64,000 nt of DNA from Solitalea lacus (GTDB lineage: Bacteria; Bacteroidota; Bacteroidia; Sphingobacteriales; Sphingobacteriaceae): assembly GCF_022014595.1 (NCBI RefSeq), contig NZ_CP091740.1, positions 1,536,200-1,600,199 on the forward strand. The letters are read 5' to 3'. The notes under the pieces were generated by a model that was given only the letters and a program-made list of their open reading frames with translations, was not told the DNA's origin and did no database searches. Position numbers and translations under genes: made by a program. How positions within the stretch are numbered: position 1 is the first letter of the stretch; each line of letters starts with the position of its first letter. Below are positions 1 to 23,301 of this stretch, one piece after another.

Positions 1-1
1 A

Positions 2-889
2 AAAATTCAGGCTGTAAAAAAATCAATCACTGAAAAGAAGCCCGTAATAATCGGAATGCTTTGCCCTCCTTCGTTTCACTATGGAAGCGAAGTATGGAAT
101 CCAACAGAAGAGGTGGATTGGACTAAATATGGTGGCCATGCAATGTGTGTAGTAGGTTATGACGATGAAAAGTTTGGTGGCGCGGTAGAAGTTCAAAACA
201 GCTGGGGTAAAACCTGGGCTAATGAAGGCTATATATGGATCAAATATCAAGACTTCGCTAAATACACCAAATATGCTTATGAATTGGTGGATTTGCCTGA
301 GCCAAAGCCGGAGGTTGCTGATCTTTCCGGAAATATAAAATTTGTCTTGGCATCGGGCCAGGAAATGCCTGCAAATCTTCATATATCTACCCGGGGCTTA
401 ACCGTTGTGCCTGCAAAACCTGCAGCTGGGCCGTTAACGCTTTATCGCACTTCAGAATCATATATTTCTGGTACCCGTTTCAGAATTTTCATATCCAACA
501 ATGAGCCCGCATTTGTATACGCTTTCAGTACTGATCTAAGCAATGAAATAACCAAAATTTTTCCTTATGAGGATAATATTAGCGCAGCATTAACCGACAA
601 ACGCAATGACGTGGCCATCCCTGATGAAGATCATTTTATTGAATTTGACAATCGGCCTGGGACTGATTTTTTATGCGTTTTGTACAGTAGGGTAGAGTTG
701 AATATTAATGATTTGATTCAGAAGATAGGCACTCAGCAAGGAAGTTTTAGTGAAAAAATCTTTAAAGTGATGGGAGATAAAATGGTGGATCCTAAAAATA
801 TACAATTTTCCAAGGAAAAGATAGCATTTCAGGGTTTTAGTAAAGGGAAAAGTGTTGTTGCCATGATGGTTGAATTGGAACATAAATAA
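2..889 (+). CDS. Papain-like (C1A) cysteine peptidase, C-terminal part (5' end lies outside the window), fused to a C-terminal DUF4384-like beta-rich domain
   Basis: The reading frame is open back to nt 2, so the CDS is truncated by the window edge. The motifs HAMCVVGYDD (catalytic His region) and NSWGKTWANEGYIWIKY match the papain His and Asn-Ser-Trp-Gly signatures. The downstream segment GTRFRIFISNNEPAFVYAFSTDLSNEITKIFP fits the DUF4384 pattern (G-x-hydrophobic ... YhYhF..D..G.h.hLFP) that is often found fused to caspase-fold proteins. Confidence 0.7.
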   Translation, partial: KIQAVKKSITEKKPVIIGMLCPPSFHYGSEVWNPTEEVDWTKYGGHAMCVVGYDDEKFGGAVEVQNSWGKTWANEGYIWIKYQDFAKYTKYAYELVDLPEPKPEVADLSGNIKFVLASGQEMPANLHISTRGLTVVPAKPAAGPLTLYRTSESYISGTRFRIFISNNEPAFVYAFSTDLSNEITKIFPYEDNISAALTDKRNDVAIPDEDHFIEFDNRPGTDFLCVLYSRVELNINDLIQKIGTQQGSFSEKIFKVMGDKMVDPKNIQFSKEKIAFQGFSKGKSVVAMMVELEHK

Positions 890-911
890 TTCTAAAAATT
901 ATTCAAGTAAA

Positions 912-3065
912 ATGAAAAAGTTATTTCTCCTAATGCTTATTCTTTACACTTGTTCAACAAGTGTTCTTTATGCCCAATCTAAAAAGTTAAAAGATTTAGC
1001 ATCTTATAAAAGTGCTTTAATATCCGCAAAACCCATGGAGAAAGCCGTAGTGGATAAAGATTTTATTCTGGCAGAGAAACTGTTTTTGCAATCGTTGGAC
1101 ATTTATCCTGTTTGGGCTATTGTTTACGATGACTTTATAAATGCTAAAGTGAACATTGGAGATATAAAAGGAGCAAACCTCTTGTGGGAAAAGGCTATTG
1201 CGATTTATAAAAAACACGATCAAATATTAGTATATAATCCTCCTTTATTTTCAACCTTTAATATTGCTAAAGGTTCGGATTATGATTACGTTCCCAGTTC
1301 TGAAAAGATAAAATCAATTTACTTGGACAGGGCCTACGCCAATGCCACTCATGGCGATATCAACCAAACAGTAAAGGATTATTTAACTGTAGAGAGCTCC
1401 ATTGGCTTAAATACAGAGAATTATAACTTTTTGGCAGTTTATGCAACACAAGCCGGTGATTTTGAAACAGCAAGAAGAAGTGTTGATACTTTAAAAAAGG
1501 TTTACGCCAACGGTAAAAGAAAGTTAATGGATGCCCAGTTGCAGCCCGTTTATACTGAAGCATTTTTATTACTTGCTATGGGGGAGTACGCTAAAGCGCT
1601 TCCTTTGGCCGAGCGGCTAGATAATGAAGATAAGGGGCTCAATACAACCTGGAAAGGGTTTGCCCGAATGATGAAAGCCGAAGCATACGCAGGTTTAGGT
1701 GATTTGGAAAATGCTCAAAAAGCTCTTGAACATGCTTTGAAACATCCTGTATTTGGAAAAAATACCGTTAATGTTCAATACACTACTGGCCTTGTAGCTT
1801 TGTTAGCAAAGGATTATGTAAAAGCAGCGGATGCATTTACTAAAGAGATCAATCATAAAGGCGCTTGGGGAAAGCATAGATTTTATACTCGAAGAGCAGA
1901 AGCACACATCGGTCTGAAAGACTACATAAAGGCAAAAAGTGATTATGAAACAGCTTTGTTATATCATCCTAGCTATGAACCGGCCATATTAGGTTTGGCT
2001 AATTTGGAGGGACGTGCTATTGCAGTTCGTAAAACTGATAAAACTCCTCCTACTATAAAACTGACCGAACCTTCTAATGCTCGCGGTCTGAAAATCACTG
2101 CATCAAGTAATGATATGATGGTAAAAGGCGTTGCTAGCGATTTATCAGGCATAAAAAGTGTAAGCATTAATGGTCAACCGGTATTTTCAAAAGAGCAGGG
2201 AGATTTTTGGGGTAGTGTCTCCTTAAAAGATGGAATTAACAAGGTAACAGTGAAAGCCATTGATATTGCAGGCAATATTGCCGAACAGATTTTTGAAATT
2301 GAAAAGCAAAATACACCGGTTGCAGTTAATGATGAAATTTTGCCAGTTGCAACGGTTGAAGCAAAAAATTATGCTCTAATCATTGCTGCACAGAATTACG
2401 AAGATTCATCTATTCCTTCACTCGAAAATCCGGTTTCGGATGCCATAAAACTAAAACTAATCATTAAGAACAATTACAGTTTTGCCGATGATAACATTTA
2501 TACGCTTTTTAATCCAGGGGTGAATGATTTTAAGAAAAAATTTGCCGAGATGCTGGAAGTTATCCGGCCGGATGATAACCTTATTATATTCTATGCAGGC
2601 CATGGCATTTGGGTAGAGAAGGAGAAAAAGGGATATTGGTTGCTTACCGATGCTAAACGAAATGATATTAACACATGGCTTTCCAATAAACTGGTGTTGG
2701 AGATGATCTCCAAAATCCCTTCACGTCACACGCTTTTAATTACAGATGCCTGTTTTTCGGGCTCTGTGTTCAAAACCCGAAGCATAGGAGCTGGTGCACC
2801 TGCTGCGATTCGGGAAATGAGCGAAAAGATCAGCCGTGTGGCGATCACTTCGGGCAATGACACCGAAGTGCCGGATCAATCTGTGTTTATGAAATACTTG
2901 GTTAAGGCACTTTCTGAAAATAAAGAAAAGTATTTAACAGCTCAGAAAATGTTCATTAATCAGATCATTGAAGCGGTGATGACTGAAACAAAAACTGAGC
3001 CTCGTTACGGTACCTTAGAAGCAGCCGGCCATGTGGGTGGGGATTATATTTTTATGAAGAAGTAA
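912..3065 (+). CDS. Secreted TPR-repeat / Ig-like / caspase-fold (peptidase C14) protein, paralog 1 of 4 (most divergent)
   Basis: The signal peptide MKKLFLLMLILYTCSTSVLYAQS starts at the internal Met at 912; the ORF track starts at 870. The N-terminal ~330 aa is TPR-like helical repeats. The middle domain PPTIKLTEPSNARGLKITASSNDMMVKG...VTVKAIDIAGN is Ig-like. The C-terminus carries the caspase His-Cys dyad motifs IIFYAGHGIW and LLITDACFSGSV. Confidence 0.8.
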   Translation: MKKLFLLMLILYTCSTSVLYAQSKKLKDLASYKSALISAKPMEKAVVDKDFILAEKLFLQSLDIYPVWAIVYDDFINAKVNIGDIKGANLLWEKAIAIYKKHDQILVYNPPLFSTFNIAKGSDYDYVPSSEKIKSIYLDRAYANATHGDINQTVKDYLTVESSIGLNTENYNFLAVYATQAGDFETARRSVDTLKKVYANGKRKLMDAQLQPVYTEAFLLLAMGEYAKALPLAERLDNEDKGLNTTWKGFARMMKAEAYAGLGDLENAQKALEHALKHPVFGKNTVNVQYTTGLVALLAKDYVKAADAFTKEINHKGAWGKHRFYTRRAEAHIGLKDYIKAKSDYETALLYHPSYEPAILGLANLEGRAIAVRKTDKTPPTIKLTEPSNARGLKITASSNDMMVKGVASDLSGIKSVSINGQPVFSKEQGDFWGSVSLKDGINKVTVKAIDIAGNIAEQIFEIEKQNTPVAVNDEILPVATVEAKNYALIIAAQNYEDSSIPSLENPVSDAIKLKLIIKNNYSFADDNIYTLFNPGVNDFKKKFAEMLEVIRPDDNLIIFYAGHGIWVEKEKKGYWLLTDAKRNDINTWLSNKLVLEMISKIPSRHTLLITDACFSGSVFKTRSIGAGAPAAIREMSEKISRVAITSGNDTEVPDQSVFMKYLVKALSENKEKYLTAQKMFINQIIEAVMTETKTEPRYGTLEAAGHVGGDYIFMKK

Positions 3066-3075
3066 ACTGCAAATT

Positions 3076-5151
3076 ATGAGAAAAATACTACTTACTCTAT
3101 TTTTTTTAATTTCCTTTTTGACTGTCTATTCACAGTCGATTCTCGCACCTTACGCAACTAATCAGGATTATAAATCCTATAATCAAGCTAAAAAACTCTG
3201 GAAAAATGGAGATTATGTTGAAGCTGAAAAGTTTTATAGAAAAGCTTATACAAATAGTGGTAATACTAGCTATTTAGCTGAATTAGGAAAAAAGAAATTT
3301 GAAATTGGAGATGCAAAGGGTGCCAATTCAGTTTATGATATTATCATTAAAGCTGAGAAAGAGAAATCTCAAATTTTTCGAACGACTTTGAATTTGTACT
3401 ATTATGAAAAGATAGATAACAACTTTAAAAAAGGAGATCCGGAGGTTGGGCTAGCTTCGACTCTTGAGTTTATGGAATCGTTGGGCGATAAGATCGGACT
3501 ATCAGAACGTAATCTTTTTCTACCTATATATACTTCGGCTGCTGAAACTGCCTTTGCCCTTGAAAATAAAGAAGCCCTCATAAAGCTTCATGATAAGGCT
3601 GCAAGTATAAAAAATGCTGATTACGGCGAGTTTTTAAGTTTCGTATATCTCAATCTGTTGAATAAGGACTATGAAAAGGTACTTAAAAGGGTTGAAGATG
3701 TACAAGTGAACGGCGGTTTTATGTCCTCAAAAACGGTTGCTAATAGTTTATTGCCAACTGTTTTTGCCCATATGGGAGAAAATGAGAAGGCGCTGGCAGC
3801 TATTGACAGGGCGAAAGGAAGTATTCTAATAGGAGAGGATTACTTTCATTATGTTTATGGATTAATAGCGCTTAATAAAAAAGATTATAAGGAAGCGATT
3901 GATCGTTTCTCTAAGGCCATAAAGGGTTATACGTTTATAGTTCGCATAGAGCCTGTAGGAAAATACAAGCATTATAGCAAAAGAGCCGAAGCCTATCTTG
4001 GCCTCGGTGATTTTATTCAAGCAAGAAAAGATTATGAGGCTGCATTGGTATACAACCCCGATTATGAACCTGCTTTAAATGGAATTGCAAAATTAGAAGG
4101 AAGAATGGTGCAGGATCGTAAAGCAGATAAAACACCTCCTGTTATTGCTGTTACTGAGCCTTCGGTAAATAGAGGGTTAAAGGTGACTGCTTCCGGAAAT
4201 GATATCATGGTAAAAGGAACCGCTATGGATCCTTCAGGTTTAAAAGCGGTAACCATTAACGGGCAAGCAGTGTATTCACAGGAGGCTGGAAGTTTTTGGG
4301 GCAATGCTGCTTTAAAAGCTGGTGCATCCAAAATTGTGATTGCCGCGACTGATATGGCTGGCAATACAGCTGAGTTTACTTTTGATATCGAAAAACCAAT
4401 AAATCCAGTTGCAGTTAATGACATTGTACCTATAGCAGAAAAAGAAGGCAGAAATTTCGCTGTTTTAATTGCTAGTCAAAATTATGACGACAGTTCAATT
4501 CCATCTTTGGAAAACCCTATTTCGGATGCGGTGAAATTGAAACTGATCCTTAAAAACAGTTATAATTTTACTGACGAGAATATCATCACTCTATTTAACC
4601 CTGAACGATCTGATTTTAAAAAACAGTTTTTGCACTTAACGGAGATGATTCAACCGGAAGATAACCTGATCATTTTTTATGCCGGCCACGGTATTTGGGT
4701 GGATAAAGAGAAGAAGGGGTATTGGTTGCTGACAGATGCCAAACGAAATGATGTAAACACATGGCTGCCGAACAAGGAGGTTTTAAATATGATTTCCGGA
4801 CTCTCTTCCCGCCATACATTATTGATTACCGATGCATGTTTCTCGGGATCAGTATTCAAAACACGGAGTATTGGAGCCGATGCGCCTGCAGCAGTAAAGG
4901 AAATGAGTCAAAAGATCAGCCGTGTGGCCATTACTTCGGGCAATGATACAGAAGTGCCAGATGAATCGGTATTTATGAAATACCTGGTTAAAGCTTTGTC
5001 TGAAAATAAAGATAAATACCTCACTGCGCAGAAAATGTTCATCACTCAAATCATTGAAGCGGTGATGACCGAAACCAAAACAGAACCTCGTTATGGAACG
5101 CTTGAAGCAGCCGGCCATGTTGGTGGAGATTTTATTTTTATGAAGAGGTAA
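3076..5151 (+). CDS. Secreted TPR / Ig-like / caspase-fold (C14) protein, paralog 2
   Basis: Signal peptide MRKILLTLFFLISFLTVYSQS, TPR region, Ig-like domain, YAGHG and DACFSG motifs. The C-terminal ~330 aa is about 90% identical to paralogs 3 and 4. There is a 10-bp intergenic gap to the upstream gene. Confidence 0.8.
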   Translation: MRKILLTLFFLISFLTVYSQSILAPYATNQDYKSYNQAKKLWKNGDYVEAEKFYRKAYTNSGNTSYLAELGKKKFEIGDAKGANSVYDIIIKAEKEKSQIFRTTLNLYYYEKIDNNFKKGDPEVGLASTLEFMESLGDKIGLSERNLFLPIYTSAAETAFALENKEALIKLHDKAASIKNADYGEFLSFVYLNLLNKDYEKVLKRVEDVQVNGGFMSSKTVANSLLPTVFAHMGENEKALAAIDRAKGSILIGEDYFHYVYGLIALNKKDYKEAIDRFSKAIKGYTFIVRIEPVGKYKHYSKRAEAYLGLGDFIQARKDYEAALVYNPDYEPALNGIAKLEGRMVQDRKADKTPPVIAVTEPSVNRGLKVTASGNDIMVKGTAMDPSGLKAVTINGQAVYSQEAGSFWGNAALKAGASKIVIAATDMAGNTAEFTFDIEKPINPVAVNDIVPIAEKEGRNFAVLIASQNYDDSSIPSLENPISDAVKLKLILKNSYNFTDENIITLFNPERSDFKKQFLHLTEMIQPEDNLIIFYAGHGIWVDKEKKGYWLLTDAKRNDVNTWLPNKEVLNMISGLSSRHTLLITDACFSGSVFKTRSIGADAPAAVKEMSQKISRVAITSGNDTEVPDESVFMKYLVKALSENKDKYLTAQKMFITQIIEAVMTETKTEPRYGTLEAAGHVGGDFIFMKR

Positions 5152-5163
5152 ACTGTAATAATT

Positions 5164-7260
5164 ATGAGAAAAATACTGCTTACTCTATTACTTTTAATTT
5201 CAGTTTCGATTGTCTATTCACAGTCGATTCTCTCACCTTACTCAACTAATCAGGATTATAAATCATATAGTCAAGCCCAAAAACTCTGGAAAAATGGAGA
5301 TTATGTTGAAGCTGAAAAGTTTTATAAAAAAGCTTATACCAATAGTGGGAATGTTTCGTACTTATGGACATTAGCAAAAAATAAATTCGAAATCGGTGAT
5401 GTAAAGGGTGGCAATTCGGTTTATGACATCATCATTAAAGATAAAACTGAATACGTAAAGGGGAAGCCTCAAATTTTCCGAACGAATCATTTAAATCCGT
5501 TTTATTTTGAAAAGATAGATAACAACTTTAAAAAAGGTGATCCGGAGGTGGGTTTGGCCTCGTCTCTTGAGTTTGTTGAAACAATGGGGGATAGGATTGG
5601 ATTTACTGAAAGTAATTTCTTTGTAGTTGTATATACCTCGGCAACTGAGACTGCCTTTGCTCTGGATAATAAAGAAGCCCTCAAAAAATTGCATGAGAAA
5701 GCTGCAAGTGTAAAAAATGGCGAATACGGTGAATTTTTAAGTTTTGTATATCTCAATATATTGAATAAAGATTACGAAAAGGTTCTCAAAAGAATTGAAG
5801 ACGTACAAACGAATGGTGGCGGTTTTACGAACTCTAAATTAGTTGCCAGAAGCTTATTGCCAACTCTTTATGCTCATATGGGAGAAAATGAGAAGGCTTT
5901 GGCTGCCATAGACAGAGCGAAAGAAAGTATACTATTAGGAGAAGATTACTTTCACTATGTTTATGGGTTAATCGCGCTCAATAAAAAAGATTATAAGGAA
6001 GCGATTGATCGATTCACAAAGGCGATAAAAGGTCGCATGTTTTTAGTTCACAGGATAGAGCCTGCAGGAAAATTTAAACATTATACTAAAAGAGCAGAAG
6101 CTTATGAAGGGCTTGGTGATTTGATACAAGCAAGAAAGGACTATGAAGCTGCATTAACGTATAATCCGGATTACGAACCGGCTTTAAATGGAATTGCAAA
6201 ATTAGAAGGAAGGATGGTGCAAGATCGTAAAGCAGATAAAAATCCTCCTGTAATTACAGTGACTGAACCTTCTGTAAACCGAGGATTAAAAGTGACCGCT
6301 TCCGGAAATGATATCATGGTAAAGGGTACCGCTATAGATCCTTCGGGTTTAAAAGCGGTAACCATTAACGGACAAGCTGCATATTCACAAGAAGCTGGAA
6401 ATTTTTGGGGGAATGTTGCTTTAAAAGAAGGATCATCCAAAATCGTGATTGCTGCAACGGATATGGCCGGCAATACAGCAGAGTATACTTTTGATATCGA
6501 AAAGCCAATATCTCCGGTAGCGGTTAATGACATTGTCCCCGTAAAAGAAAAAGAAGGAAGAAATTTCGCGGTTTTAATTGCCAGTCAAAATTATGACGAC
6601 AGTTCAATTCCATCTTTGGAAAACCCTATTGCTGATGCTGTAAAATTGAAATTGATCCTCAAAAACAGTTATAATTTTATTGACGAGAATATCATCACCC
6701 TGTTTAATCCGGGCCGAGCTGACTTTAAGAAACAGTTTTTACTGCTATCTGAAATCATTCAGCCTGAAGACAATTTGATCATTTTCTATGCCGGTCACGG
6801 TATTTGGGTGGATAAAGAAAAGAAAGGATATTGGTTATTGACGGACGCACAGCGAAGTGATGTAAATACGTGGCTACCTAACAAGGAGGTTTTAAATATG
6901 ATTGCCGGCCTTCCCTCACGCCATACATTGTTGATTACCGATGCATGTTTTTCTGGCTCAGTATTCAAAACACGGAGCATTGGAGCCGATGCACCTGCAG
7001 CTGTAAGGGAAATGAGCCAAAGGATTAGCCGTGTTGCCATTACTTCGGGTAATGATACGGAAGTGCCTGATCAATCAGTATTCATGAAATACCTGGTTAA
7101 AGCCTTGTCTGAAAATAAAGATAAATACCTCACCGCGCAGAAAATGTTCATTACTCAAATTATTGAAGCAGTCATGACCGAAACGAAAACCGAACCTCGT
7201 TATGGCACTTTAGAGGCAGCCGGACATGTGGGCGGAGATTTTATTTTTACAAAGAAGTAA
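5164..7260 (+). CDS. Secreted TPR / Ig-like / caspase-fold (C14) protein, paralog 3
   Basis: Same architecture. The catalytic His codon is at 6796-6798 (FYAGHG) and the Cys codon at 6937-6939 (DACFSG). There is a 12-bp gap to the upstream gene. Confidence 0.8.
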   Translation: MRKILLTLLLLISVSIVYSQSILSPYSTNQDYKSYSQAQKLWKNGDYVEAEKFYKKAYTNSGNVSYLWTLAKNKFEIGDVKGGNSVYDIIIKDKTEYVKGKPQIFRTNHLNPFYFEKIDNNFKKGDPEVGLASSLEFVETMGDRIGFTESNFFVVVYTSATETAFALDNKEALKKLHEKAASVKNGEYGEFLSFVYLNILNKDYEKVLKRIEDVQTNGGGFTNSKLVARSLLPTLYAHMGENEKALAAIDRAKESILLGEDYFHYVYGLIALNKKDYKEAIDRFTKAIKGRMFLVHRIEPAGKFKHYTKRAEAYEGLGDLIQARKDYEAALTYNPDYEPALNGIAKLEGRMVQDRKADKNPPVITVTEPSVNRGLKVTASGNDIMVKGTAIDPSGLKAVTINGQAAYSQEAGNFWGNVALKEGSSKIVIAATDMAGNTAEYTFDIEKPISPVAVNDIVPVKEKEGRNFAVLIASQNYDDSSIPSLENPIADAVKLKLILKNSYNFIDENIITLFNPGRADFKKQFLLLSEIIQPEDNLIIFYAGHGIWVDKEKKGYWLLTDAQRSDVNTWLPNKEVLNMIAGLPSRHTLLITDACFSGSVFKTRSIGADAPAAVREMSQRISRVAITSGNDTEVPDQSVFMKYLVKALSENKDKYLTAQKMFITQIIEAVMTETKTEPRYGTLEAAGHVGGDFIFTKK

Positions 7261-7272
7261 ACTGCAATAATT

Positions 7273-9360
7273 ATGAGAAAAATACTACTAACTCTAATAC
7301 TTTCAATATCTGTTTCGATTGTCTATTCACAGTCGATTTTCTCAAATCCTGGTTTTGATACCCAAACCTATAATCAAGCTGAAAAACTTTGGAAAAATGG
7401 AGATTATGTTGAAGCTGAAAAGCATTATAGAAAGGCTTATTCAAATACCGGAAACGTGTCGTATTTATGGACATTAGCAAAAAAGAAATTCGAAATCGGT
7501 GATGTAAAGGGGGCCAATTCGGTTTATGATATCCTCATTAAAGATCAAACTGAATACGTTAAAGGGAAACCCCAATTTTCCAGAACGACTTTAAATCTAT
7601 ACTATTATGAGAAAATAGATAACAACTTTAAAAAGGGTAATCCGGAGGTCGGATTATCAACTGCTTTGGAGTTTGTTGAGTCTATGGGTGAAAAGGTTAC
7701 GGAATCTGAACGAACATACTTTCAGAGTATTTATTATAATGCTTGTGAGACAGCATTTGCCCTTGATGATGAAAAAGCTCTGGTAAAATTACATGAGAAA
7801 GCTTCGGGAGTAAAAAACGGAGAATATGGTGAGTTCTTAAGCTTTGTTTATTTGAACTTGGTTCGAAAAGACTATACAAAGGCACTTGAAAAAATCGAGA
7901 ACGTTTTAGAAAAAGGTGGTGGGTTTATGTTCTCTAAAATGGTGGCAAAAAGTTTATTGCCAGTTGTTTATACTCAAATGGGAGAAAATGAAAAAGCGCT
8001 GGAAGCAATAAAACAATCAACGTCAAGTGTTTTAGTTGGTGAGGACTACTATAATTATCATTATGGGTTAATTGCCTTAAATCAAAAAAAATACCAAGAA
8101 GCGATCGATCGGTTTAACAAAGCTATTAAAGGTTATATGGTTCTGTATTTAAGAGTCGAACCAGTGGGGAAATATAAGCACTATACTAAAAGAGCAGAAG
8201 CTTATGAAGGGCTTGGTGATTTAATCCAGGCAAGAAAGGACTATGAAGCTGCATTAACGTATAATCCGGATTACGAGCCTGCTTTAAATGGAATTGCAAA
8301 ATTAGAAGGAAGGATGGTGCAAGATCGTAAAGCAGATAAAAATCCTCCCGTAATTACAGTGACTGAACCTTCTGTAAACCGAGGATTAAAAGTGACTGCT
8401 TCCGGAAATGATATCATGGTAAAGGGTACCGCTATAGATCCTTCGGGTTTAAAAGCGGTAACCATTAACGGACAAGCTGCGTATTCACAGGAAGCTGGAA
8501 ATTTTTGGGGGAATGTTGCTTTAAAAGAAGGATCTTCCAAAATCGTGATTGCTGCAACGGATATGGCCGGCAATACAGCTGATTATACTTTTGATATTGA
8601 AAAGCCAATAACTCCGGTAGCGGTTAATGATATTGTCCCTGTAAAAGAAAAAGAAGGAAGAAATTTCGCGGTTTTAATTGCCAGTCAAAATTATGACGAC
8701 AGTTCAATTCCATCTTTGGAAAACCCTATTGCTGATGCTGTAAAATTGAAATTGATCCTCAAAAACAGTTATAATTTTATTGACGAGAATATCATCACCC
8801 TGTTTAATCCGGGCCGCTCTGACTTTAAGAAACAGTTTTTACTGCTATCTGAGATCATTCAGCCTGAAGACAACCTGATCATTTTCTATGCCGGTCATGG
8901 TATTTGGGTAGATAAAGAAAAGAAAGGATATTGGTTGTTGACAGACGCCACTCGAAATGATGTAAATACGTGGCTACCTAACAAGGAGGTTTTAAATATG
9001 ATTGCCGGACTTCCTTCACGCCATACATTGTTGATTACCGATGCATGTTTCTCTGGTTCAGTATTCAAAACACGGAGCATTGGAGCCGATGCACCAGCAG
9101 CTGTGCGGGAAATGAGCCAAAGGATCAGTCGTGTTGCCATTACCTCGGGTAATGATACGGAGGTGCCTGATCAATCAGTATTCATGAAATACCTGGTTAA
9201 AGCCTTGTCTGAAAATAAAGATAAATACCTCACCGCGCAGAAAATGTTCATCACTCAAATTATTGAAGCGGTCATGACCGAAACGAAAACAGAACCTCGT
9301 TATGGAACGCTTGAAGCTGCCGGACATGTGGGTGGAGATTTTATTTTTACGAAGAAATGA
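7273..9360 (+). CDS. Secreted TPR / Ig-like / caspase-fold (C14) protein, paralog 4
   Basis: Same architecture. The 3' ~1.08 kb (about 8281-9360) is about 97% identical at the nucleotide level to 6181-7260 of paralog 3. The N-terminal TPR half is diverged. Confidence 0.8.
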   Translation: MRKILLTLILSISVSIVYSQSIFSNPGFDTQTYNQAEKLWKNGDYVEAEKHYRKAYSNTGNVSYLWTLAKKKFEIGDVKGANSVYDILIKDQTEYVKGKPQFSRTTLNLYYYEKIDNNFKKGNPEVGLSTALEFVESMGEKVTESERTYFQSIYYNACETAFALDDEKALVKLHEKASGVKNGEYGEFLSFVYLNLVRKDYTKALEKIENVLEKGGGFMFSKMVAKSLLPVVYTQMGENEKALEAIKQSTSSVLVGEDYYNYHYGLIALNQKKYQEAIDRFNKAIKGYMVLYLRVEPVGKYKHYTKRAEAYEGLGDLIQARKDYEAALTYNPDYEPALNGIAKLEGRMVQDRKADKNPPVITVTEPSVNRGLKVTASGNDIMVKGTAIDPSGLKAVTINGQAAYSQEAGNFWGNVALKEGSSKIVIAATDMAGNTADYTFDIEKPITPVAVNDIVPVKEKEGRNFAVLIASQNYDDSSIPSLENPIADAVKLKLILKNSYNFIDENIITLFNPGRSDFKKQFLLLSEIIQPEDNLIIFYAGHGIWVDKEKKGYWLLTDATRNDVNTWLPNKEVLNMIAGLPSRHTLLITDACFSGSVFKTRSIGADAPAAVREMSQRISRVAITSGNDTEVPDQSVFMKYLVKALSENKDKYLTAQKMFITQIIEAVMTETKTEPRYGTLEAAGHVGGDFIFTKK

Positions 9361-10538
9361 GAAATTGGATAAAATGGCTGATTAGTTTTGGGCATGCAAT
9401 TGTCTTGCTTGTACTTACTGCTTTTTGGCTAAATACAGACTTTAGTTATGGCGATGAGCAATTACTTGTAAAATGGTCATCTATTCTTAAACGAGTGGTC
9501 TTCAATATAGATGAAGACCCTCCTAAAGAAGATTATTTATTTATCAATTTGGCTTATGAAAAGGCATTAATTCCAAGAGAAGAAGGACTGGGGAATGAAG
9601 TAATTACTGACAGGGTAAAGCTTGCACAGTTTTTTGAAATTCTTAAACGGAATCAGAAGTCGGTTAAATTTACAGTCTGTGATGTATTTCTTAAAGGAAA
9701 ATCAGAAAGTGATAGCTTGCTTCAAAGTAGTATTTCTGGAATCAAGAATATTGTTTTTCCAACGCATCACGGCGAGGATGGAAAGCCTGAAGAACTTGAT
9801 TTGAATGTTCCTCATGCTATTGCTGATTATAGAATGGCAAGCGGAGGATTCCTGAAATTCAAGCTTTTTCAGGACGATAATCTTTCCACCATTCCGGTTT
9901 ATTTATATGAAAAAACCAAAGGCCGTAAAATTGATCATCAAAACGGACTCTATTTCGACAACGGAAAATTGAGTTTAAATTCTACTATAATTGATTATCA
10001 AATACGCAGTCATGAACTATTTGAGCAAGGTGAATATCCGGTGGTTAACCTTTCAGAACTTCTTATGCTTCCGGAAGATGTAATTGTGAATGAATTTTTA
10101 AAGAACCGAATTGTATTGATTGGAGATTTTAACAATGATGTACATGAAACAATTTTTGGTTCTACACCGGGCACGCTCATACTTCTCAATGTTTATTTGA
10201 CACTTAAGGCGGGATATCACTTTGTAACTTACTGGTGGGTTGTTTTTATGCTTATGGCATATACCATTTTCTCAAGATTAATGCTTTTTCCCGAAAATGA
10301 TTCAGAAAAAATCAAAAAAATAAACTGGATCGGCCCACTTTTAGGAAGCGCAACTTATCTTTCTGTTCTTTCTGTAGCCTCTTATTTAATGTTTAATATT
10401 CATCTTCAAGTCTTGATATTAACTTTATATATTACTCTTCTCCGATACATCATTCGACTTAATCAAGTTGAGTGGAGTAAGGATCAGTTAAAAGAATGGG
10501 CATTAGCTCTACGTGAAACTTATTTTAATTTTAAATAA
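9357..10538 (+). CDS. Stand-alone CHASE2-like extracytoplasmic sensor domain membrane protein (no output domain)
   Basis: The start ATG overlaps the upstream stop (ATGA). Topology is an N-terminal TM (WLISFGHAIVLLVLTAFWL), then a ~270-aa extracytoplasmic region, then 3 C-terminal TMs, then a ~30-aa cytoplasmic tail. The segment NRIVLIGDFNNDVHETIFGSTPGTLILLNVYLTL resembles the conserved CHASE2 core (D.x.TP.G..PG..h.A). Confidence 0.5.
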   Translation: MRNWIKWLISFGHAIVLLVLTAFWLNTDFSYGDEQLLVKWSSILKRVVFNIDEDPPKEDYLFINLAYEKALIPREEGLGNEVITDRVKLAQFFEILKRNQKSVKFTVCDVFLKGKSESDSLLQSSISGIKNIVFPTHHGEDGKPEELDLNVPHAIADYRMASGGFLKFKLFQDDNLSTIPVYLYEKTKGRKIDHQNGLYFDNGKLSLNSTIIDYQIRSHELFEQGEYPVVNLSELLMLPEDVIVNEFLKNRIVLIGDFNNDVHETIFGSTPGTLILLNVYLTLKAGYHFVTYWWVVFMLMAYTIFSRLMLFPENDSEKIKKINWIGPLLGSATYLSVLSVASYLMFNIHLQVLILTLYITLLRYIIRLNQVEWSKDQLKEWALALRETYFNFK

Positions 10539-11359
10539 TGATGGGAAACTTACTTGCAATTTTATTATGGATTTTAATGGCTTTTTTGCCAGCTGAAAAA
10601 TATTATGTCACGTTTATAAAGGGGACTGTTCTTTTAGAGCGCACAAAAAAACAGGTTAAAATTGGAGATGCGCTAGAACCAGAAGATAAGCTTGTGTTTA
10701 GTGATAAAAACGCAAAGATTTCTTGCATAAGCCCATCAAAAGGTAGATTTGATATTAGTGCTCTATCTGCTAAGGCAGGCAGCAAAGGAGAGTTATTAGC
10801 TGTTTTACGCTCAAGCCTTATTCCAGCCACCGGAACCTATCATTTAAGTACACGCTCTTTATCCGATCAGAATGTGGATCCGGAAGCCTATTTTAAAACC
10901 GGTACTGATGATCGTTTTTTAATTGTCGAAAACGAGTGGATTCCTGTAAATGATATATACTCAACTAAGGGTGGGAATTTTTTCTTTCTTCAATATACAA
11001 TCAATGGAAAAACTGTATTGAAGAAATTACCAAAACAAGAGAATGCTATTGCTTTTAACAAGAGTCTTTTTGTTGATGAAAGTGGGGGTATATTAAATTC
11101 CGATAATTACGTTAACACTATGCTTTGTTTTCAAGAGAGCACCAACGGAGTCCCTAAGTCAAAAACTGTAGCAAAGTTTATCCCTGTTATAGTTGATAAA
11201 GCTGAAATACTCGCTGAATTAGCAGTGCTTCGTAATAATTTACAAAACCTTTATCCTAATAATGAAAAAGCAGTAAAGACGGAGCTATATGCTCATCTTG
11301 CTGCAAATTATGGTACAATAAATCAAAATTTATTTGAAGATTTGATGCACAGTAAATAA
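10538..11359 (+). CDS. Secreted or membrane-anchored protein with an N-terminal FecR-like beta domain
   Basis: The start overlaps the upstream stop (TAATG). N-terminal hydrophobic signal/anchor LLAILLWILMAFLPA. The segment VTFIKGTVLLERTKKQVKIGDALEPEDKLVFSDKNAKISCISPSKGRFDI matches the FecR fold pattern (GxV......G..L..GD.L...D.L.T...A...L.F.DGS). Confidence 0.4.
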   Translation: MMGNLLAILLWILMAFLPAEKYYVTFIKGTVLLERTKKQVKIGDALEPEDKLVFSDKNAKISCISPSKGRFDISALSAKAGSKGELLAVLRSSLIPATGTYHLSTRSLSDQNVDPEAYFKTGTDDRFLIVENEWIPVNDIYSTKGGNFFFLQYTINGKTVLKKLPKQENAIAFNKSLFVDESGGILNSDNYVNTMLCFQESTNGVPKSKTVAKFIPVIVDKAEILAELAVLRNNLQNLYPNNEKAVKTELYAHLAANYGTINQNLFEDLMHSK

Positions 11360-11436
11360 TTATTCTGCCTTTGGATTGAAACCAATAAATGATGCAGATT
11401 AGGGTGGAGAATGCATATAAAAATTTGCAATAGCAA

Positions 11437-11472
11437 CAAAAGGATTTGAATTACAAATCCTTTTGTCTTTTA
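11437..11472 (+). terminator. Rho-independent terminator ending the protease/CHASE2/FecR operon
   Basis: Perfect 12-bp inverted repeat caaaaggatttg / caaatccttttg with a 5-nt loop, followed by tcttttat. Confidence 0.55.
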
Positions 11473-11686
11473 TAGCGTGCCAGGCATGTGTATCGGGAGG
11501 AAGGCTAAAAATTGCCGAAGCCCTTATAATAACAAGCTATGCACTTTTTATAATAGGGGTACCTAGCACTGAAGTTGCCAGAAAATATAAAACAATACAG
11601 ATTATTATGATTAATTCTTTATATTTTATTTTATTACTTATTGGTAATTAGTGTAAATTTAACACTTATCTATAAAATAAATATCA

Positions 11687-13078
11687 ATGAAAAAAAACAT
11701 CTTTTTAACCTTTTTTGTGCTTATTAGTTTTGCATCCCTGGGTCAGCAAAAATCTGTTATTACAGGGAAAATTACCAACCCACAAGCTGGGATTTCTGAA
11801 ATAAAATTCAAATACCTTTATGATTTTCGAAATTTTCGGAAGAATGCGGATGCGAAAATTTACAAAGTAGATGAGAAAGGAAATTTTAAAATTGAAGAAA
11901 ACCTTTCCGAACTAGTATTTGTGCAATTTGAATATGGAGATTGGGGTAATACTTTACTGTTAGAGCCAGGCGCTAATGCAACAATGTCATTTGATTCAAA
12001 ATCTAAAGATAAGGACAAATTATACAAAATTAATGGTAGAGGAGCAGTAGGTTGCCAATTTTTAGAAGCTATTTTTTATTCTGATACTACCATAAGTAAA
12101 TCCAAAGATTTTAGTAAAGCTTTTACAAAAATCGACGAATTGGGAAAACAAGCCCAGGAAGGATTAAATACTAAGTATTCAAAAGTGCTTTCTTCTGCCG
12201 CCATTACTCATTTGAAAGAAGAGCTTTATTATTTTACTTATCTCACCAAGTTGCAATTAATAACAAAAGACAGGGAAAATATTAACCAGATTTATAGCGG
12301 AAAGGCTCCAGAATATGTTGTTGAGTTCATTAAGGACCTTCCCTTTAAAGATGCCAAACTTAATAACTTTGGATTTTACCTTCTTTATAACAATGGATTA
12401 CATTTGAGATTTGCATTGGAGCAAGAAGATTATAATGTTAGGCAGTATAATGTTATTAATAAAGTGCTTCCACCTGTATTAGCAGAAAAGGAATCTGTTA
12501 GTGTAATTAATCGACTAATTGAAAATGGAGATTTCCTAATTGCTGACAAACTTATCAAGGATTTAAGTCAACGATTCCCAGCATCTGATAATCAAAAATC
12601 ATTTGATGAAAAAATTGCCGAAACAAAAAAATTGTTGTTCAACCTTGCTCCCGGCAAAAATGCACCAGCATTTATTTTGAAAAACTTGAATGGCAAGGAA
12701 GTTTCATTAAGCGATTTTAAAGATAAAGTTATATACCTTGATTTTTGGGCAAGCTGGTGTGGGCCATGCAGAGGGGAAATGCCTTATGCTAAAAGAATCA
12801 AAGAAAAATATAAGGACAATAAGGATGTTGTATTTCTTTATGTTTCTATAGATGAAAAGGAAGATGCTTGGAAAAAAGGTATTGAGGAAAATAAGATTGA
12901 GGGCGTTCATTTAATTAGCAATGGATTTTTCAGTGATGTTCCTAAGAAATACATGGTGAATGGTATACCCCGGTACTATTTGATTGGAAAAGGCGGAGAG
13001 ATTATCTCAAATGAAGCACCTCGCCCAAGCTCTGAAGAGCAGTTGACGACGATGATAGATAAAGCCCTTAAGAATTAA
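11687..13078 (+). CDS. TlpA/ResA-family periplasmic thiol:disulfide oxidoreductase with a long N-terminal domain
   Basis: Signal peptide. Thioredoxin-fold motif FWASWCGPCRGEMP in the C-terminal domain. Confidence 0.8.
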   Translation: MKKNIFLTFFVLISFASLGQQKSVITGKITNPQAGISEIKFKYLYDFRNFRKNADAKIYKVDEKGNFKIEENLSELVFVQFEYGDWGNTLLLEPGANATMSFDSKSKDKDKLYKINGRGAVGCQFLEAIFYSDTTISKSKDFSKAFTKIDELGKQAQEGLNTKYSKVLSSAAITHLKEELYYFTYLTKLQLITKDRENINQIYSGKAPEYVVEFIKDLPFKDAKLNNFGFYLLYNNGLHLRFALEQEDYNVRQYNVINKVLPPVLAEKESVSVINRLIENGDFLIADKLIKDLSQRFPASDNQKSFDEKIAETKKLLFNLAPGKNAPAFILKNLNGKEVSLSDFKDKVIYLDFWASWCGPCRGEMPYAKRIKEKYKDNKDVVFLYVSIDEKEDAWKKGIEENKIEGVHLISNGFFSDVPKKYMVNGIPRYYLIGKGGEIISNEAPRPSSEEQLTTMIDKALKN

Positions 13079-13139
13079 ATTTTTGGTAGATTTTTATTTG
13101 AGGCGTCCTAAAATAAGTTGATAGTTTTTCAACACTAAA

Positions 13140-13178
13140 AACAGTCCTTGTTAATTATTGGCAAGGACTGTTTGTTTA
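13140..13178 (+). terminator. Putative rho-independent terminator
   Basis: 11-bp perfect inverted repeat aacagtccttg / caaggactgtt with an 11-nt loop, followed by a T-rich tail tgtttat. Confidence 0.4.
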
Positions 13179-13332
13179 TGCACCTTTTCCAGAGTCTGAG
13201 CTCCGCTCGAGCAGGAGGTGGGTGAGTTGTGAATTTGTAAGGTTTAGTATAATATGCCGGTTGGAGGCCTGAATTAATTTATAGTTTGACGCCTCACTGA
13301 GATGAGACTTCAAACTAGTAGTGGAATGAATG

Positions 13333-14829
13333 TTATAAATGCTTTGAAATTTGTTCAAACAATAATTCTTTTTGGCTAGGTCGATAGGCTTTTTTTTCGG
13401 CAATATTCCCTTGTTTATCTATAATTATATAAGTGGGTACACTGTAACCATTGCCATCCCAAATAAGCTTATTGATATCATTTTGTAACTCTTTATTCGC
13501 TCTAACATGAGTGCCCTCTAACTCATAGTATTTAATCATTTCTTTCCATCGCGTATCGTATTTGTCTTCATCAATGGAAATATACAGCATGGTAACATCC
13601 TTTTCATTCAGGAATTTCTTCAATTCTTTAGTGTATTGGAATTCAGCTTTGCATGGTCCACACCATGTGGCCCAGGTGTCAATTAAAATAGTTTTGCCTT
13701 TAAATTGATCAGTAAGCTCTTTTAGTGTGTTTATTTGGCTATACTTTGATCCAATTTTCTCGCCGCTTGCATATTTGGCTTTTGCTTTGATTTGAAAAGC
13801 AATAACATCCTCTATTAATGGTTGAATTAAAGGAGCGTATTTGCTGTAGGGGAATTGTCTTTTGAAATCGTTAAATAATTCAATTAATGCCGATTGGTAA
13901 AGTTTGCTATTGGCATCTGAATAAATTATATTGGCTAGAGCATACTCTGCAGCGTGGTCTTTAAATTCAGAATTAATAGTGTTTCCGATTCTTTTTAAAT
14001 CGTCATTTTCACGTTCACTAGGCGGGTTCTGACCTGATTTTTTAATTAGATAATGCTTATATTTTACCAGATAGGTATAATAATAATCAAACACCCAAAG
14101 CATTTGAGTGGCGCTAAAGCTGTTTGGTGGGTATAGTTGATAGGTTTTGTGCCACAAAGCTTCAAAATCAGAAGGTAAGGAACTTTGATAAAGCTTATGG
14201 TTTTTAGGTAATTCCTGTTTTCTAAATTGATGTACTATTGCATAAGCGGTAATCCCAGCAAAGTAATAATTAGTTGATATTTTTAAATAGTTAAAAAAAG
14301 TGGTATCTATTTGAAATTGATTAAATAGTTTTTCTTCCTCAGCAAAGGTGCTTAAACGTCTGCGATTGATTTTTTCTTCCACATCAACAGCAGCGCTATC
14401 AGTCAAGTATTGATAGCCTTCATACATTATGGGAGATACGTACCTTCCTTTAGGCAAGAAGTTCTCTGTTAAAAAATGTTGTCCGGTGGCGTTACTGCCT
14501 TCGAATTGCCAAGGATTGGTTTTATTAGCGGTATCCAAACTTATTTTTATTGAGTTGCCTTTTTGTACATACAAGAAGGCTTTTTTGTCCAATACCTTTA
14601 TTGTTATCGGGCCGGTTTCATCTTCTTTAAGTGGAATTGATAAGGTTCCCGAATTTGAGATTTTTGCATGTCTTTCGTTGCCCGCAAAATAATTATGATT
14701 AATAGGTATGCTTATAGTTACATCATCGTTTTTAGCATTTCTGACATTCAATTCAATTGTTGCGATTTGCGCATGTGCTACTGTATACGCACAGGTAAAC
14801 AATATAAAACTCAGTAGGAGTTGTCTCAT
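13333..14829 (-). CDS. TlpA/ResA-family periplasmic thiol:disulfide oxidoreductase (second paralog, convergent)
   Basis: Signal peptide MRQLLLSFILFTCAYTVAHAQ. C-terminal motif WATWCGPCKAEF. Confidence 0.8.
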   Translation of the reverse strand: MRQLLLSFILFTCAYTVAHAQIATIELNVRNAKNDDVTISIPINHNYFAGNERHAKISNSGTLSIPLKEDETGPITIKVLDKKAFLYVQKGNSIKISLDTANKTNPWQFEGSNATGQHFLTENFLPKGRYVSPIMYEGYQYLTDSAAVDVEEKINRRRLSTFAEEEKLFNQFQIDTTFFNYLKISTNYYFAGITAYAIVHQFRKQELPKNHKLYQSSLPSDFEALWHKTYQLYPPNSFSATQMLWVFDYYYTYLVKYKHYLIKKSGQNPPSERENDDLKRIGNTINSEFKDHAAEYALANIIYSDANSKLYQSALIELFNDFKRQFPYSKYAPLIQPLIEDVIAFQIKAKAKYASGEKIGSKYSQINTLKELTDQFKGKTILIDTWATWCGPCKAEFQYTKELKKFLNEKDVTMLYISIDEDKYDTRWKEMIKYYELEGTHVRANKELQNDINKLIWDGNGYSVPTYIIIDKQGNIAEKKAYRPSQKELLFEQISKHL

Positions 14830-15658: not shown

Positions 15659-18600
15659 ATGCCTGAATTCAGTCACCTGCACGTACATACTCAGTTTTCC
15701 CTGCTCGATGGAGCTGCGGATATCTCCAAGCTTTTTAAAAAGGCGGCCAATGACGGCATGCGCGCTCTTGCCATTACCGACCATGGTAACATGTTCGGCG
15801 TGTTCAAGTTCGTTGCCGAAGCCGGTAAGCATGATAACAAGGTAAAACCGATTGTTGGTTGTGAGTTCTATGTAGTGGCCGATCGTCATGAAAAGAAGTT
15901 TTCCAAAGAGAAAAAAGATAAGCGCTATCACCAGTTGTTCCTTGCCAAAAACGCCAATGGCTATAAGAATCTTACCAAGCTTTGTTCGTATGGATACATG
16001 GAGGGGTTATACAGTAAGTGGCCTCGTATTGATAAGGAATTGATTTTAAAATATCATGAAGACCTTATTGCTACTACCTGTTGTATTGGGGCTTCGGTTC
16101 CGCAGGCCATTTTAAATGAGGGCGAAGAAGCAGCAGAAAAGGAATTTAAATGGTGGTTGGATATTTTCGGTGAAGATTATTATATCGAACTGCAGCGCCA
16201 TAATCTGCCCGAACAAGTAAAAGTGAACGAAGTGCTTCTTCGCTTTGCTAAAAAATACAATGTAAAGGTGATTGCATCCAATGATTCGCACTATGTGGAT
16301 CAGGCAGATGCCAATGCCCATGATATTTTGCTGTGTATTAACACCGGTGATATTCAGTCGACTCCAATTGCAACGGATGAGGAAGGTGGTAAAGGTTATC
16401 GTTTTGGTTTCCCTAACGACCAGTTCTTCTTCAAAACTCAGGCAGAGATGAATGCCTTGTTTCATGACATTCCGGAAGCAATTGATAATACCAATGAGAT
16501 TGTCGATAAGGTTGACCTGCTGAAACTAAAGCAAGACATTTTGCTTCCGAACTTCCCAATTCCACCGGGCTTTGTCGATCAGATGCAATATCTGGAGCAT
16601 ATTACCTGGGAAGGAGCAAGGGCACGGTATGGAGATGACCTGACACCGGATAAGGAAGAACGTATCAATTTTGAGCTGCATACCATTCGTACAATGGGAT
16701 TTGCCGGTTACTTCCTTATCGTATCCGATTTCATTAAGGCCGGACGCGATATGGGCGTATTCATTGGTCCGGGCCGTGGTTCAGCTGCGGGTTCAGCCGT
16801 GGCTTATTGTATCGGTATCACCAATATTGACCCGATTAAATACAATCTCCTGTTTGAGCGTTTCCTGAATCCCGATCGTAAGTCAATGCCCGATATTGAT
16901 ACGGACTTCGACGACGAGGGCCGTCAGCGCGTGATTGATTATGTGGTTGATAAATATGGCAAGACACAGGTAGCACAAATCATTACCTACGGCTCCATGG
17001 CCGCCAAGATGAGTATCAAAGACGTGGCTCGTGCCTTGGATTTACCTTTGCCCGATTCGAATGCCATGGCCAAACTCGTACCTGATAAGCCTGGTATTTC
17101 TTTGGATAGGGTGATGAACGCCCCTATCGATGGGGATAAATCACTGAAAGATAAAGAGGGACTTGGTCCTGAAGATATAGAGAACGTGAAGCAGCTTCGC
17201 GAAATTCGTGAAGGATCTGATCTTCGTTCTAAAGTAATTAAGGAAGCCCTGATTTTGGAGGGTTCTATCCGCGGAACAGGTATCCACGCAGCGGGTATCA
17301 TCATTGCCCCAGAAGATTTAACGAATATCGTTCCCGTAGCAGTAGCCAAAGATTCTGATCTGTTGGTTACGCAGTACGAGGGAAAGGTAATTGAAGATGC
17401 CGGCGTAATCAAGATGGACTTTTTGGGTTTGAAGACCCTTACCATTATCCGTGATGCGTTGCGTATGATCAAGGAAAATCATGGAGTAGAATTCGATATT
17501 GATTATATCCCGTTGGATGATCAGAAGACCTTTGAGCTTTACCAACGTGGCGAAACCAATGGTACGTTCCAGTTTGAGAGTCCGGGTATGCAGAAATACC
17601 TGAAAGATCTGGTGCCCGATAAGTTCGAAGACTTGATTGCCATGAACGCCCTGTATCGTCCGGGACCGATCGAGTACATTCCCGACTTTATTGAGCGTAA
17701 ACATGGACGTAAAGCGGTAGAATATGACTTGGCCGACATGGAGGAATACCTCTTCGATACCTATGGGATTACCGTTTATCAGGAGCAGGTGATGTTGCTT
17801 TCGCAGAAACTTGCCAACTTTACCAAAGGTGATGCCGACGTGCTGCGTAAAGCGATGGGTAAAAAAGACCGTAAAACGTTGGATAAACTGAAACCGCAGT
17901 TTATTGATAATGCCAAAGAAAAAGGGCATGATGCCAAAGTGTTAGAAAAAGTTTGGACTGACTGGGAGGCCTTTGCATCTTACGCGTTCAATAAATCGCA
18001 CTCCACCTGCTATGCATTCGTTGCCTATCAAACTGCTTACTTAAAAGCGCATTATCCGGCTGAATATATGGCTTCGGTATTAACTCATACCAAAGGACAG
18101 ATTGATAAGATCACTTTCTTCATGGAAGAGTGTAAACGTATCGGTGTGCCAGTTTTGGGTCCTGATGTGAATGAAAGTGCGCTTCACTTTACTGCAACTA
18201 AGAAAGGGCAGATTCGTTTCGGTTTGTCGGGTATTAAAGGTTTGGGTGAAGCGGCCATTGAGAGTTTGGTGACCGAACGTAAAGAGAATGGTCCTTATGA
18301 ATCGGTTTATGATTTTGCCAGAAGAGTGAATTTACGTGCGGTTAATAAGAAATCATGGGAGAATTTAGTGTATTCAGGAGCTTTCGATTGCTATGGAGAG
18401 TACCATCGTGCACAATACTTTGGTGTAAACATTTCGGATCGATTAAATGGTATTGAACGCCTGGTGAAATACGGAAACGATTTCGTTGCCAACCAAAACA
18501 GCGCTCAGAACTCATTGTTTGGAGGGACGGCGGATGCCCATGTGCCGGAACCACCACTTCCGGATTCGGAAGAGTGGAGTTTGTTGCAGAAGTTGAGTTT

Positions 18601-20400: not shown

Positions 20401-20638
20401 TTAACAAATTGATTAATTTATCGAAGGCTGTCTCATAAAGGGGTAGCCTTTATTTTTGGTATTTTAACCCGGGAGAATGTTATTAGATTGAATGTATTGT
20501 TGTAATATTTACAATACTTGCTAAATCGTTTTAGTAAAATTGTATTTTTAGCGTAAAATCTATAATGGTTTACGAATAATTGTAATGAACTTAATGGTAC
20601 AACATAATTATTCGTCCAAACCTTTTACAAGCATAAAC

Positions 20639-23290: not shown

Positions 23291-23301
23291 TAAGACTTTA
23301 T

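Follow-up and report, generated by a model that had tools for sequence, protein, structure and literature searches.

A conserved and apparently undescribed Bacteroidota operon that combines caspase-like and papain-like peptidases, predicted to be exported, with a stand-alone CHASE2 protein

The window analysed here is a stretch of 64,000 nucleotides from the chromosome of Solitalea lacus (Bacteroidota; contig NZ_CP091740.1, positions 1,536,200 to 1,600,199). Within positions 1-11475 it contains seven + strand open reading frames (ORFs) which are co-directional and tightly packed and are called g1 to g7 in the following (Table 1). They represent a self-contained Bacteroidota operon of four protein families, namely a papain-like C1 peptidase with a DUF4384 domain (C1-DUF4384, g1), proteins composed of repeats, an Ig-like domain and a caspase domain (g2 to g5), a CHASE2 protein that is devoid of an output domain (g6) and the partner protein g7. 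The operon is real and conserved and appears to be an undescribed arrangement for proteolysis outside the cytoplasm, in which known domain families are newly combined. No description of this gene set was found in the searched literature, in keeping with a first-pass annotation of the same DNA which had held that this is not a described system. The proposed function, to which a probability of about 0.4 is assigned, is regulated extracytoplasmic proteolysis where CHASE2 and g7 act as the control unit and the protease is the output.

The gene set is a functional module because it recurs across genomes in which the flanks are unrelated, and chance adjacency is effectively excluded. Four loci that harbour relatives of the CHASE2 protein, in Pedobacter foliorum, Daejeonella rubra, a Ferruginibacter metagenome-assembled genome (MAG) and a metagenome contig, share the gene set in unrelated surroundings; each comprises C1-DUF4384, one to three caspase genes, CHASE2 and a protein of ~265-274 aa without a domain match. 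A scan of species-representative genomes led to 33 loci, whose gene content within flanks of 10 kb was counted by tblastn with the domains of the window and two profile checks. The g7 family adjoins CHASE2 in 32 of these, and 30 of the 33 have caspase genes near CHASE2, their tandem copies numbering from 1 to at least 5. C1-DUF4384 is found within the 10-kb flanks of 11 of the 33 loci, including eight where 1-3 caspase genes left room for it; its presence is not scorable where caspase arrays fill the flank, and it is absent from L013 and L030 although the flanks reach equally far in these loci. The order is permuted to CHASE2, g7 and then C1 in three loci, of which two (L033 and L038) have a caspase gene alongside and the third (L037) is cut within the C1 gene, while in a Cytophagales locus a g7 homologue is located just upstream of CHASE2. 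The flanking genes are unrelated between genera and no conserved regulator was seen in the flanks of the loci. The conserved neighbourhood on which the first-pass annotation had made its reading depend is thus observed in 33 species genomes with differing flanks, and survives permutation of the gene order. An alternative explanation is that the operon encodes secreted nutritional proteases which lie beside a CHASE2 gene pair by chance or are adjacent to it without any functional link. Many secreted peptidases are known in Bacteroidota and glycoside hydrolases are encoded further downstream in the window; however, the four families are found together in at least 30 species whose flanks are unrelated, in some of them even in permuted order, the genes are translationally coupled and no type IX secretion C-terminal domain is visible in the caspases. 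The tabulation of neighbourhoods has already largely refuted this explanation, which is regarded as extremely unlikely.

Table 1. Genes and terminator of the Solitalea lacus operon; positions are those of the window
Feature	Position	Strand	Description
g1	1..889	+	Secreted papain-like (C1) cysteine peptidase with C-terminal DUF4384; 3' part only, 295 codons
g2	912..3065	+	Signal peptide, divergent TPR region, Ig-like beta-sandwich, caspase (C14); old paralogue class
g3	3076..5151	+	Signal peptide, TPR, Ig-like and caspase domains
g4	5164..7260	+	Signal peptide, TPR, Ig-like and caspase domains; recent tandem duplicate
g5	7273..9360	+	Signal peptide, TPR, Ig-like and caspase domains; recent tandem duplicate
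g6	9357..10538	+	Stand-alone CHASE2 membrane protein, 393 aa, four transmembrane segments
g7	10538..11359	+	Secreted ~270-aa protein of an unannotated family; constant partner of the CHASE2 gene
Intrinsic terminator-like hairpin and T-run	11436..11475	+	Closes the operon

The compact layout of the operon had been recognised in the first-pass annotation, and its ORF coordinates, short gaps, overlapping start and stop codons and single strong terminator were all reproduced. The intergenic gaps from g1 to g5 measure 22, 10, 12 and 12 bp, g5 and g6 overlap in an ATGA at 9357, and g6 and g7 overlap in a TAATG at 10536-10540. The terminator hairpin (11436-11466) consists of a 13-bp stem and a 5-nt loop followed by the tail CTTTTAT, and is the strongest terminator-like site on the + strand in positions 1-13500. 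A gap of 327 bp separates g7 from the next gene. The 5' end of g1, which includes the signal peptide and the catalytic Cys, is located to the left of the window edge.

The four central genes encode the candidate output. In Pfam searches the products of g2 to g5 each match TPR families above the cut-off (TPR_2 in the case of g2), the Ig-like beta-sandwich family Glucodextran_B with 32-36 bits (cut-off 27) and Peptidase_C14 (PF00656) with 41.7-44.9 bits (cut-off 21.4). The catalytic dyad motifs IFYAGHG and ITDACFSG are present in all four genes, and an open-position motif scan of the window and the 33 genome loci showed that the His and the Cys are retained in 61 of 61 caspase copies. Judged from these motifs the active sites of g2 to g5 appear to be intact, and the D-x-C motif may point to a specificity for Arg or Lys at the P1 position. 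The first-pass description of four signal-peptide proteins with TPR, Ig-like and C14 domains and an intact His-Cys dyad therefore holds for every copy. The N-terminus of g2 is signal-peptide-like (MKKLFLLMLILYTCSTSVLYAQS), and so are those of g2 to g5 in general, of which MRKILLTLFFLISFLTVYSQS is an example. No solved structure is detectable by sequence for the caspases of the window.

Caspase-fold enzymes include transamidases, among them GPI8 and the PorU protein of the Bacteroidota type IX secretion system. A further explanation would accordingly be that the caspase-fold domains are transpeptidases or sortase-like ligases and not hydrolases, and that the cluster builds or anchors a surface structure. 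The existence of such transamidases, the periplasmic location of the proteins in a phylum that uses this chemistry and the intact dyad are in support of it. However, the cluster has neither a conserved cargo or glycan gene nor a conserved C-terminal domain for type IX secretion, the similarity of the domains is to Peptidase_C14, and C13-type matches are weak and occur in one distant relative, all of which makes a ligase function very unlikely.

The g1 product, although truncated, scores above the Pfam cut-offs for both Peptidase_C1 (PF00112; 33.2 bits, cut-off 20.7) and DUF4384 (PF14326; 33.1 bits, cut-off 27; residues 154-230 of the g1 fragment), as expected from the fusion of a papain-like peptidase to a DUF4384-like domain that had been put forward in the first reading of the sequence. 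The papain-type His (GGHAMCVVGY) and Asn (QNSWG) motifs are kept in g1. Its catalytic Cys is predicted from what is seen in the orthologues only, g1 itself being cut by the window edge. Full-length C1 orthologues are 471-485 aa long, and all nine that were extracted display a signal-peptide-like N-terminus together with the catalytic Cys motif QGxxGTCxAW. Their nearest solved relatives in the PDB are xylellain and cathepsin K.

The g6 product is 100% identical over its 393 aa to a Solitalea lacus protein annotated as 'CHASE2 domain-containing protein'. Its own score against CHASE2 is 25.3 bits, just below the Pfam cut-off of 26.3, and 14 of 20 members of the g6 family match CHASE2 and no other family with a best E value of 1.2e-8. 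Hydropathy places transmembrane (TM) segments at residues 7-25, 293-311, 328-346 and 348-366, leaving ~265 external residues between the first and the second. This topology of one TM segment, an external domain and three further TM segments is the canonical CHASE2 arrangement, and the helices of the AlphaFold2 model (mean predicted local distance difference test score, pLDDT, 83.5) agree with it. Neither Pfam nor NCBIfam revealed an output domain (kinase, cyclase or GGDEF/EAL) after the last TM segment, and the protein, whose helices reach to about residue 368, ends 25 residues beyond it. The view of g6 as a CHASE2-like membrane domain without output, which was part of the first-pass annotation, is supported by the four-TM topology and the 14 CHASE2-only relatives but needs one qualification. 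The cytoplasmic tail of 25 residues (10461-10535), which ends in LRExYFNFK, is largely conserved at the level of a majority consensus of the 20 g6 family members, down to ~45% identity. This conservation hints at an interaction motif in an otherwise 'output-less' protein.

The g7 product consists of a signal peptide, two beta-rich domains and a C-terminal three-helix bundle, and belongs to an unannotated family of 764 clusters at 50% identity. Two cysteines, C63 and C197, are nearly invariant in the family, which would fit a periplasmic protein. The last gene of the operon had initially been taken for a secreted protein of the FecR fold, an assignment that failed in every test run, be it by profile search, hhalign or fold. 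The FecR profile (PF04773) has no match at E<=5 in 28 close g7 members and none at E<=1 in 41 remote members, and hhalign of g7 against an alignment of true FecR proteins returned a probability of 0.2-0.3%, the FecR profile being a shallow one of 67-87% identity. The fold of g7 is likewise not FecR/PupR-like, and g7 is instead assigned to a separate and large family of secreted proteins of ~270 aa.

Members of this family were also encountered in two other settings. At L044:3358-4994 two tandem g7-family paralogues of 271 and 274 aa follow an ORF of 141 aa, and no CHASE2 or caspase gene is located nearby. A metagenomic protein of 428 aa (P0297) contains stretches of Peptidase_C1 (residues 60-209) and Peptidase_C14 (220-293), and its residues 340-427 correspond to the C-terminal helices of g7-family proteins. 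It was rejected as a true Rosetta-stone fusion of C1, C14 and g7, as only fragments of each domain are present, and is most likely a collapsed or chimeric gene that resulted from deletion within an operon or from mis-assembly.

Signal-peptide-like N-termini are present on g2 to g5, on g7 and on the full-length C1 orthologues, and the CHASE2 protein has the predicted 1+3 TM topology. Every product is thus predicted to be exported or embedded in the membrane, and the module would be entirely extracytoplasmic, as the first-pass annotation had proposed. That proposal had been made dependent on profile matches to C14 and CHASE2, a conserved neighbourhood and signal peptides, each of which was looked for and found. 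No type IX secretion C-terminal domain that would allow export beyond the periplasm is visible at the C-termini of g2 to g5.

The caspase genes g2 to g5 are repeat units of ~2.1 kb. Their C-terminal halves, which consist of the last TPR, the Ig-like domain and the caspase domain, are nearly identical in protein, whereas the N-terminal TPR halves diverge, that of g2 most of all. Synonymous divergence (dS) among the four genes ranges from 0.6 to saturation with the exception of a tract in g4 and g5. Pairwise Nei-Gojobori estimates of the ratio of nonsynonymous to synonymous divergence (dN/dS), made at the level of whole regions, yielded 0.17-0.46 for the TPR half of the window paralogues compared with 0.06 for their caspase half, and both halves are therefore under purifying selection. 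Hypervariation or positive selection of the TPR part was rejected at this level. The 'diversifying' TPR array of the first-pass annotation is an overstatement, since dN/dS is below 1 throughout and the g2-type and g3-type TPR modules are old paralogue classes which are shared between genera. In particular, Solitalea agri and S. koreensis each have one copy, which is orthologous to g3, and the sole copy of L008 and of L018 shares 81-82% identity with g3 in the TPR part. The TPR part of g2 has its closest matches (38-40%) among the paralogues of other genera. The C-terminal half of g5 is 93-99% identical in DNA to that of g4. Identity reaches 96-99% between the tracts at ~6130-6730 (g4) and ~8230-8830 (g5), the paralogues being 58-90% identical elsewhere, which suggests recent gene conversion across the last TPR, the Ig-like domain and the early caspase region.

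It had also been noted at the outset that the protease is conserved while the repeat module varies, and this contrast is real. Between genera, identity amounts to 72-92% in the caspase domain compared with 23-41% in the TPR part, and distant relatives carry WD40 in place of TPR. The repeats, a mixture of old classes and recent duplicates, are under far weaker constraint than the protease. Beside distant CHASE2 proteins of 28-32% identity (L040 and L035) a WD40-caspase is found instead of a TPR-caspase, and the caspase is bare beside a CHASE2 protein of 36% identity (L036). The stand-alone CHASE2 genes at L035:4551-9982 and L040:12029-15703 are flanked by proteins composed of a WD40 beta-propeller and a caspase; L035 also encodes a separate WD40 protein and has a g7 homologue upstream of CHASE2. 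Another observation concerns the repeat units themselves. A match to 11 of 12 positions of the sigma-70 consensus (TTGAAA-18-TATAAT) occurs at the same position on the + strand of g3, g4 and g5 (4537-4566, 6646-6675 and 8746-8775). It is probably merely a part of the repeated coding unit because Bacteroidota promoters have a different consensus.

The combination of a conserved caspase effector with a variable repeat sensor and lineage-specific tandem expansion mirrors caspase conflict systems (PMC7159879, PMC8195603), and the operon could on these grounds provide envelope-level defence, abortive infection or programmed lysis. The TPR- and WD40-caspases would then serve as a periplasmic receptor array which triggers destructive proteolysis of the cell's own envelope. 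The caspase copy number of 1 to at least 5 is in line with this idea, as are weak matches to the EACC1-associated caspase model and to the generic caspase model of PADLOC. However, the scores of g2 to g5 against the EACC1-associated model (NF047832, NCBIfam) are 57.6-63.5 bits and far below the cut-off of 140, and the cluster contains no EACC1-like gene, no NTPase and no EACC/EAD adaptor. A search of PADLOC-DB 2.0 matched no defined system, returning only the generic 'caspase' model (E 1e-7 to 5e-6) and a Csn2 hit at chance level. The Solitalea proteins are predicted to be exported whereas the described systems are cytoplasmic, and dN/dS values below 1 throughout together with old TPR classes shared between genera are unlike the turnover expected of an arms race. 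Nor is the operon located in a defence island or mobile element. No signs of either were seen in the surrounding chromosome and such a context was rejected, as the flanks consist of ordinary chromosomal genes which differ by genus and PADLOC is negative. A role in defence or lysis is thus considered rather improbable.

In the favoured model of regulated extracytoplasmic proteolysis, CHASE2 and g7 would form a control unit that is anchored in the inner membrane and faces the periplasm. The TPR/Ig accessory protein that is typical of CHASE2 systems would here itself carry the output in the form of a caspase-type protease, so that a periplasmic cue may be converted directly into proteolysis outside the cytoplasm instead of into cyclic AMP (cAMP) or phosphorylation. 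Catalysis would reside in the conserved half of the caspase proteins, which spans the last TPR, the Ig-like domain and the caspase domain and may also dock to the control unit and be regulated by it, and the divergent N-terminal repeats may let the paralogues recognise different ligands or substrates. C1-DUF4384 would act in this pathway as a further protease and is plausibly a substrate or partner of the caspases via its DUF4384 domain, which is also present in the tail of Csx30, the substrate of a TPR-caspase. The sequences directly document the genes and how widely they recur, the export and topology signals and the preserved catalytic residues; how the proteins interact, what triggers them, in which order the proteases act and which role they have in the cell are all inferred.

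Several points weigh against this model. The conserved tail of g6 leaves room for signalling into the cytoplasm. The models of g6 and g7 are without informative solved relatives in the copy of the PDB that was searched. The contacts between CHASE2, g7 and the caspases are predicted from gene association. The C1 gene is verified in only a third of the loci, which is partly owing to the 10-kb flanks. The g7 family is not exclusive to the module but also exists outside it, and CHASE2-g7 pairs without a nearby caspase are found in two genomes (L009 and L032); taken together with the g7-family pair of L044 that has neither CHASE2 nor caspase beside it, this means that the parts of the module are separable. 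Finally, the active-site cysteines need to be kept reduced although their surroundings are oxidising, and the operon is not linked to any conserved reductase.

The same genes could instead be engaged in constitutive processing or turnover of the envelope, with the caspases and the C1 peptidase maturing, trimming or releasing particular proteins of the envelope or surface, much as LapG or caspase-fold processing enzymes do, and CHASE2 serving as a non-sensing anchor or scaffold. This is considered somewhat unlikely. No sequence homology to the LapD-LapG-LapA system (PMC4359373) was found, and the two differ in that LapD receives cytoplasmic cyclic di-GMP whereas g6 has only a 25-aa tail. A more far-reaching proposal, which is regarded as quite doubtful, is that the operon represents an unrecognised class in which a CHASE2/g7 sensor of the inner membrane licenses periplasmic TPR- or WD40-caspases that form arrays and are individually tuned to distinct envelope ligands, and a cascade from caspase to papain-like peptidase remodels or destroys the envelope. 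If true, such a receptor-gated caspase cascade would correspond in the periplasm to the cytoplasmic pathways of NLR-caspase immunity and cell death.

Parts of the operon are reminiscent of described CHASE2-receptor clusters. A CHASE2 adenylate cyclase is clustered with a FecR-domain protein and a TPR protein in Campylobacterota (PMC9239204), and the regulon of a CHASE2 cyclase in Sinorhizobium meliloti (CyaD1/SMc02177/SMb20495; PMC5498481) includes periplasmic proteins with FecR and TPR domains. In magnetotactic bacteria the periplasmic Ig-like and TPR protein MtxA precedes a CHASE2 cyclase (PMC4439547), and LysM-FecR proteins precede CHASE2 histidine kinases in Burkholderia (PMC5192318). Like these clusters the Solitalea operon combines a CHASE2 protein of 1+3 TM topology with secreted proteins that bear TPR and/or Ig-like domains and with another secreted partner which is rich in beta structure, and all of the sensing parts are periplasmic. 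Unlike them it has a CHASE2 protein without cyclase or kinase, a TPR/Ig protein that bears a caspase, a partner (g7) that is not FecR and an additional papain-like peptidase.

Links between caspases and CHASE2 are known from cyanobacteria, where the two are fused, and from EACC2-caspase proteins with a C-terminal CHASE2, the caspase being predicted to be cytoplasmic (PMC3501461, PMC8195603). These fusions likewise connect a C14 caspase-like protease with a CHASE2 sensor, whereas the Solitalea caspases are separate proteins with signal peptides and would reside on the side of the membrane where the sensor domain lies. Orthocaspases and bacterial metacaspase-like proteases, for example MaOC1, have TPR, WD40 and DUF4384 as recurrent accessory domains (PMC5756287, PMC7475262). 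On inspection of the sequences the Solitalea caspases share with them the p20-type His-Cys dyad and a D-x-C-x-S-G motif that resembles the Arg/Lys-specific relatives, but differ in being exported, in their multi-copy tandem arrangement and in their place in a fixed operon of four families.

In Craspase, the TPR-CHAT protease Csx29 of type III-E CRISPR cleaves Csx30 as its substrate, and some Csx30 proteins end in a DUF4384 domain (bioRxiv 10.1101/2022.08.17.504292). Craspase and the operon have in common a TPR-fused caspase-fold protease that is paired with a partner able to carry DUF4384. In contrast to the cytoplasmic and RNA-guided Craspase, the Solitalea operon is without CRISPR components and its DUF4384 bearer is itself a peptidase. 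The resemblance is one of working principle only.

To our knowledge few of the numerous bacterial caspase homologues have a known role, and the ones discussed to date are cytoplasmic; likewise, we know of no ligand of CHASE2 after two decades. Both questions meet in one compact, conserved and genetically tractable operon which is present in culturable strains of Pedobacter, Solitalea and Daejeonella, and where the 'output' of CHASE2 would be measurable as proteolysis on the same side of the membrane. The analysis furthermore defines the large unannotated g7 family and gives DUF4384 a testable role as a handle that is recognised by proteases. If the model of a CHASE2-g7 control unit is true, it would mean that a classical sensor domain can be rewired from nucleotide signalling to direct extracytoplasmic proteolysis.

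The chromosome downstream of the operon contains two convergent genes (11687-13078 on the + strand and 13333-14829 on the - strand) which both encode an unannotated N-terminal region of ~320-360 aa followed by a C-terminal TlpA/ResA-like thioredoxin-fold (Redoxin) domain. They follow directly on the operon in the window but are not adjacent to it in Solitalea agri, S. koreensis and most genera, and recur weakly (27-30% identity) in two MAG loci, L021 and L023. A functional link with the operon was rejected since the genes are not adjacent in other Solitalea and their recurrence is weak, and their position beside it is probably coincidental. Further downstream, the window encodes a DnaE-type alpha subunit of DNA polymerase III (15659-19216, + strand) and glycoside hydrolases of families GH2 and GH3 (20585-25671, + strand).

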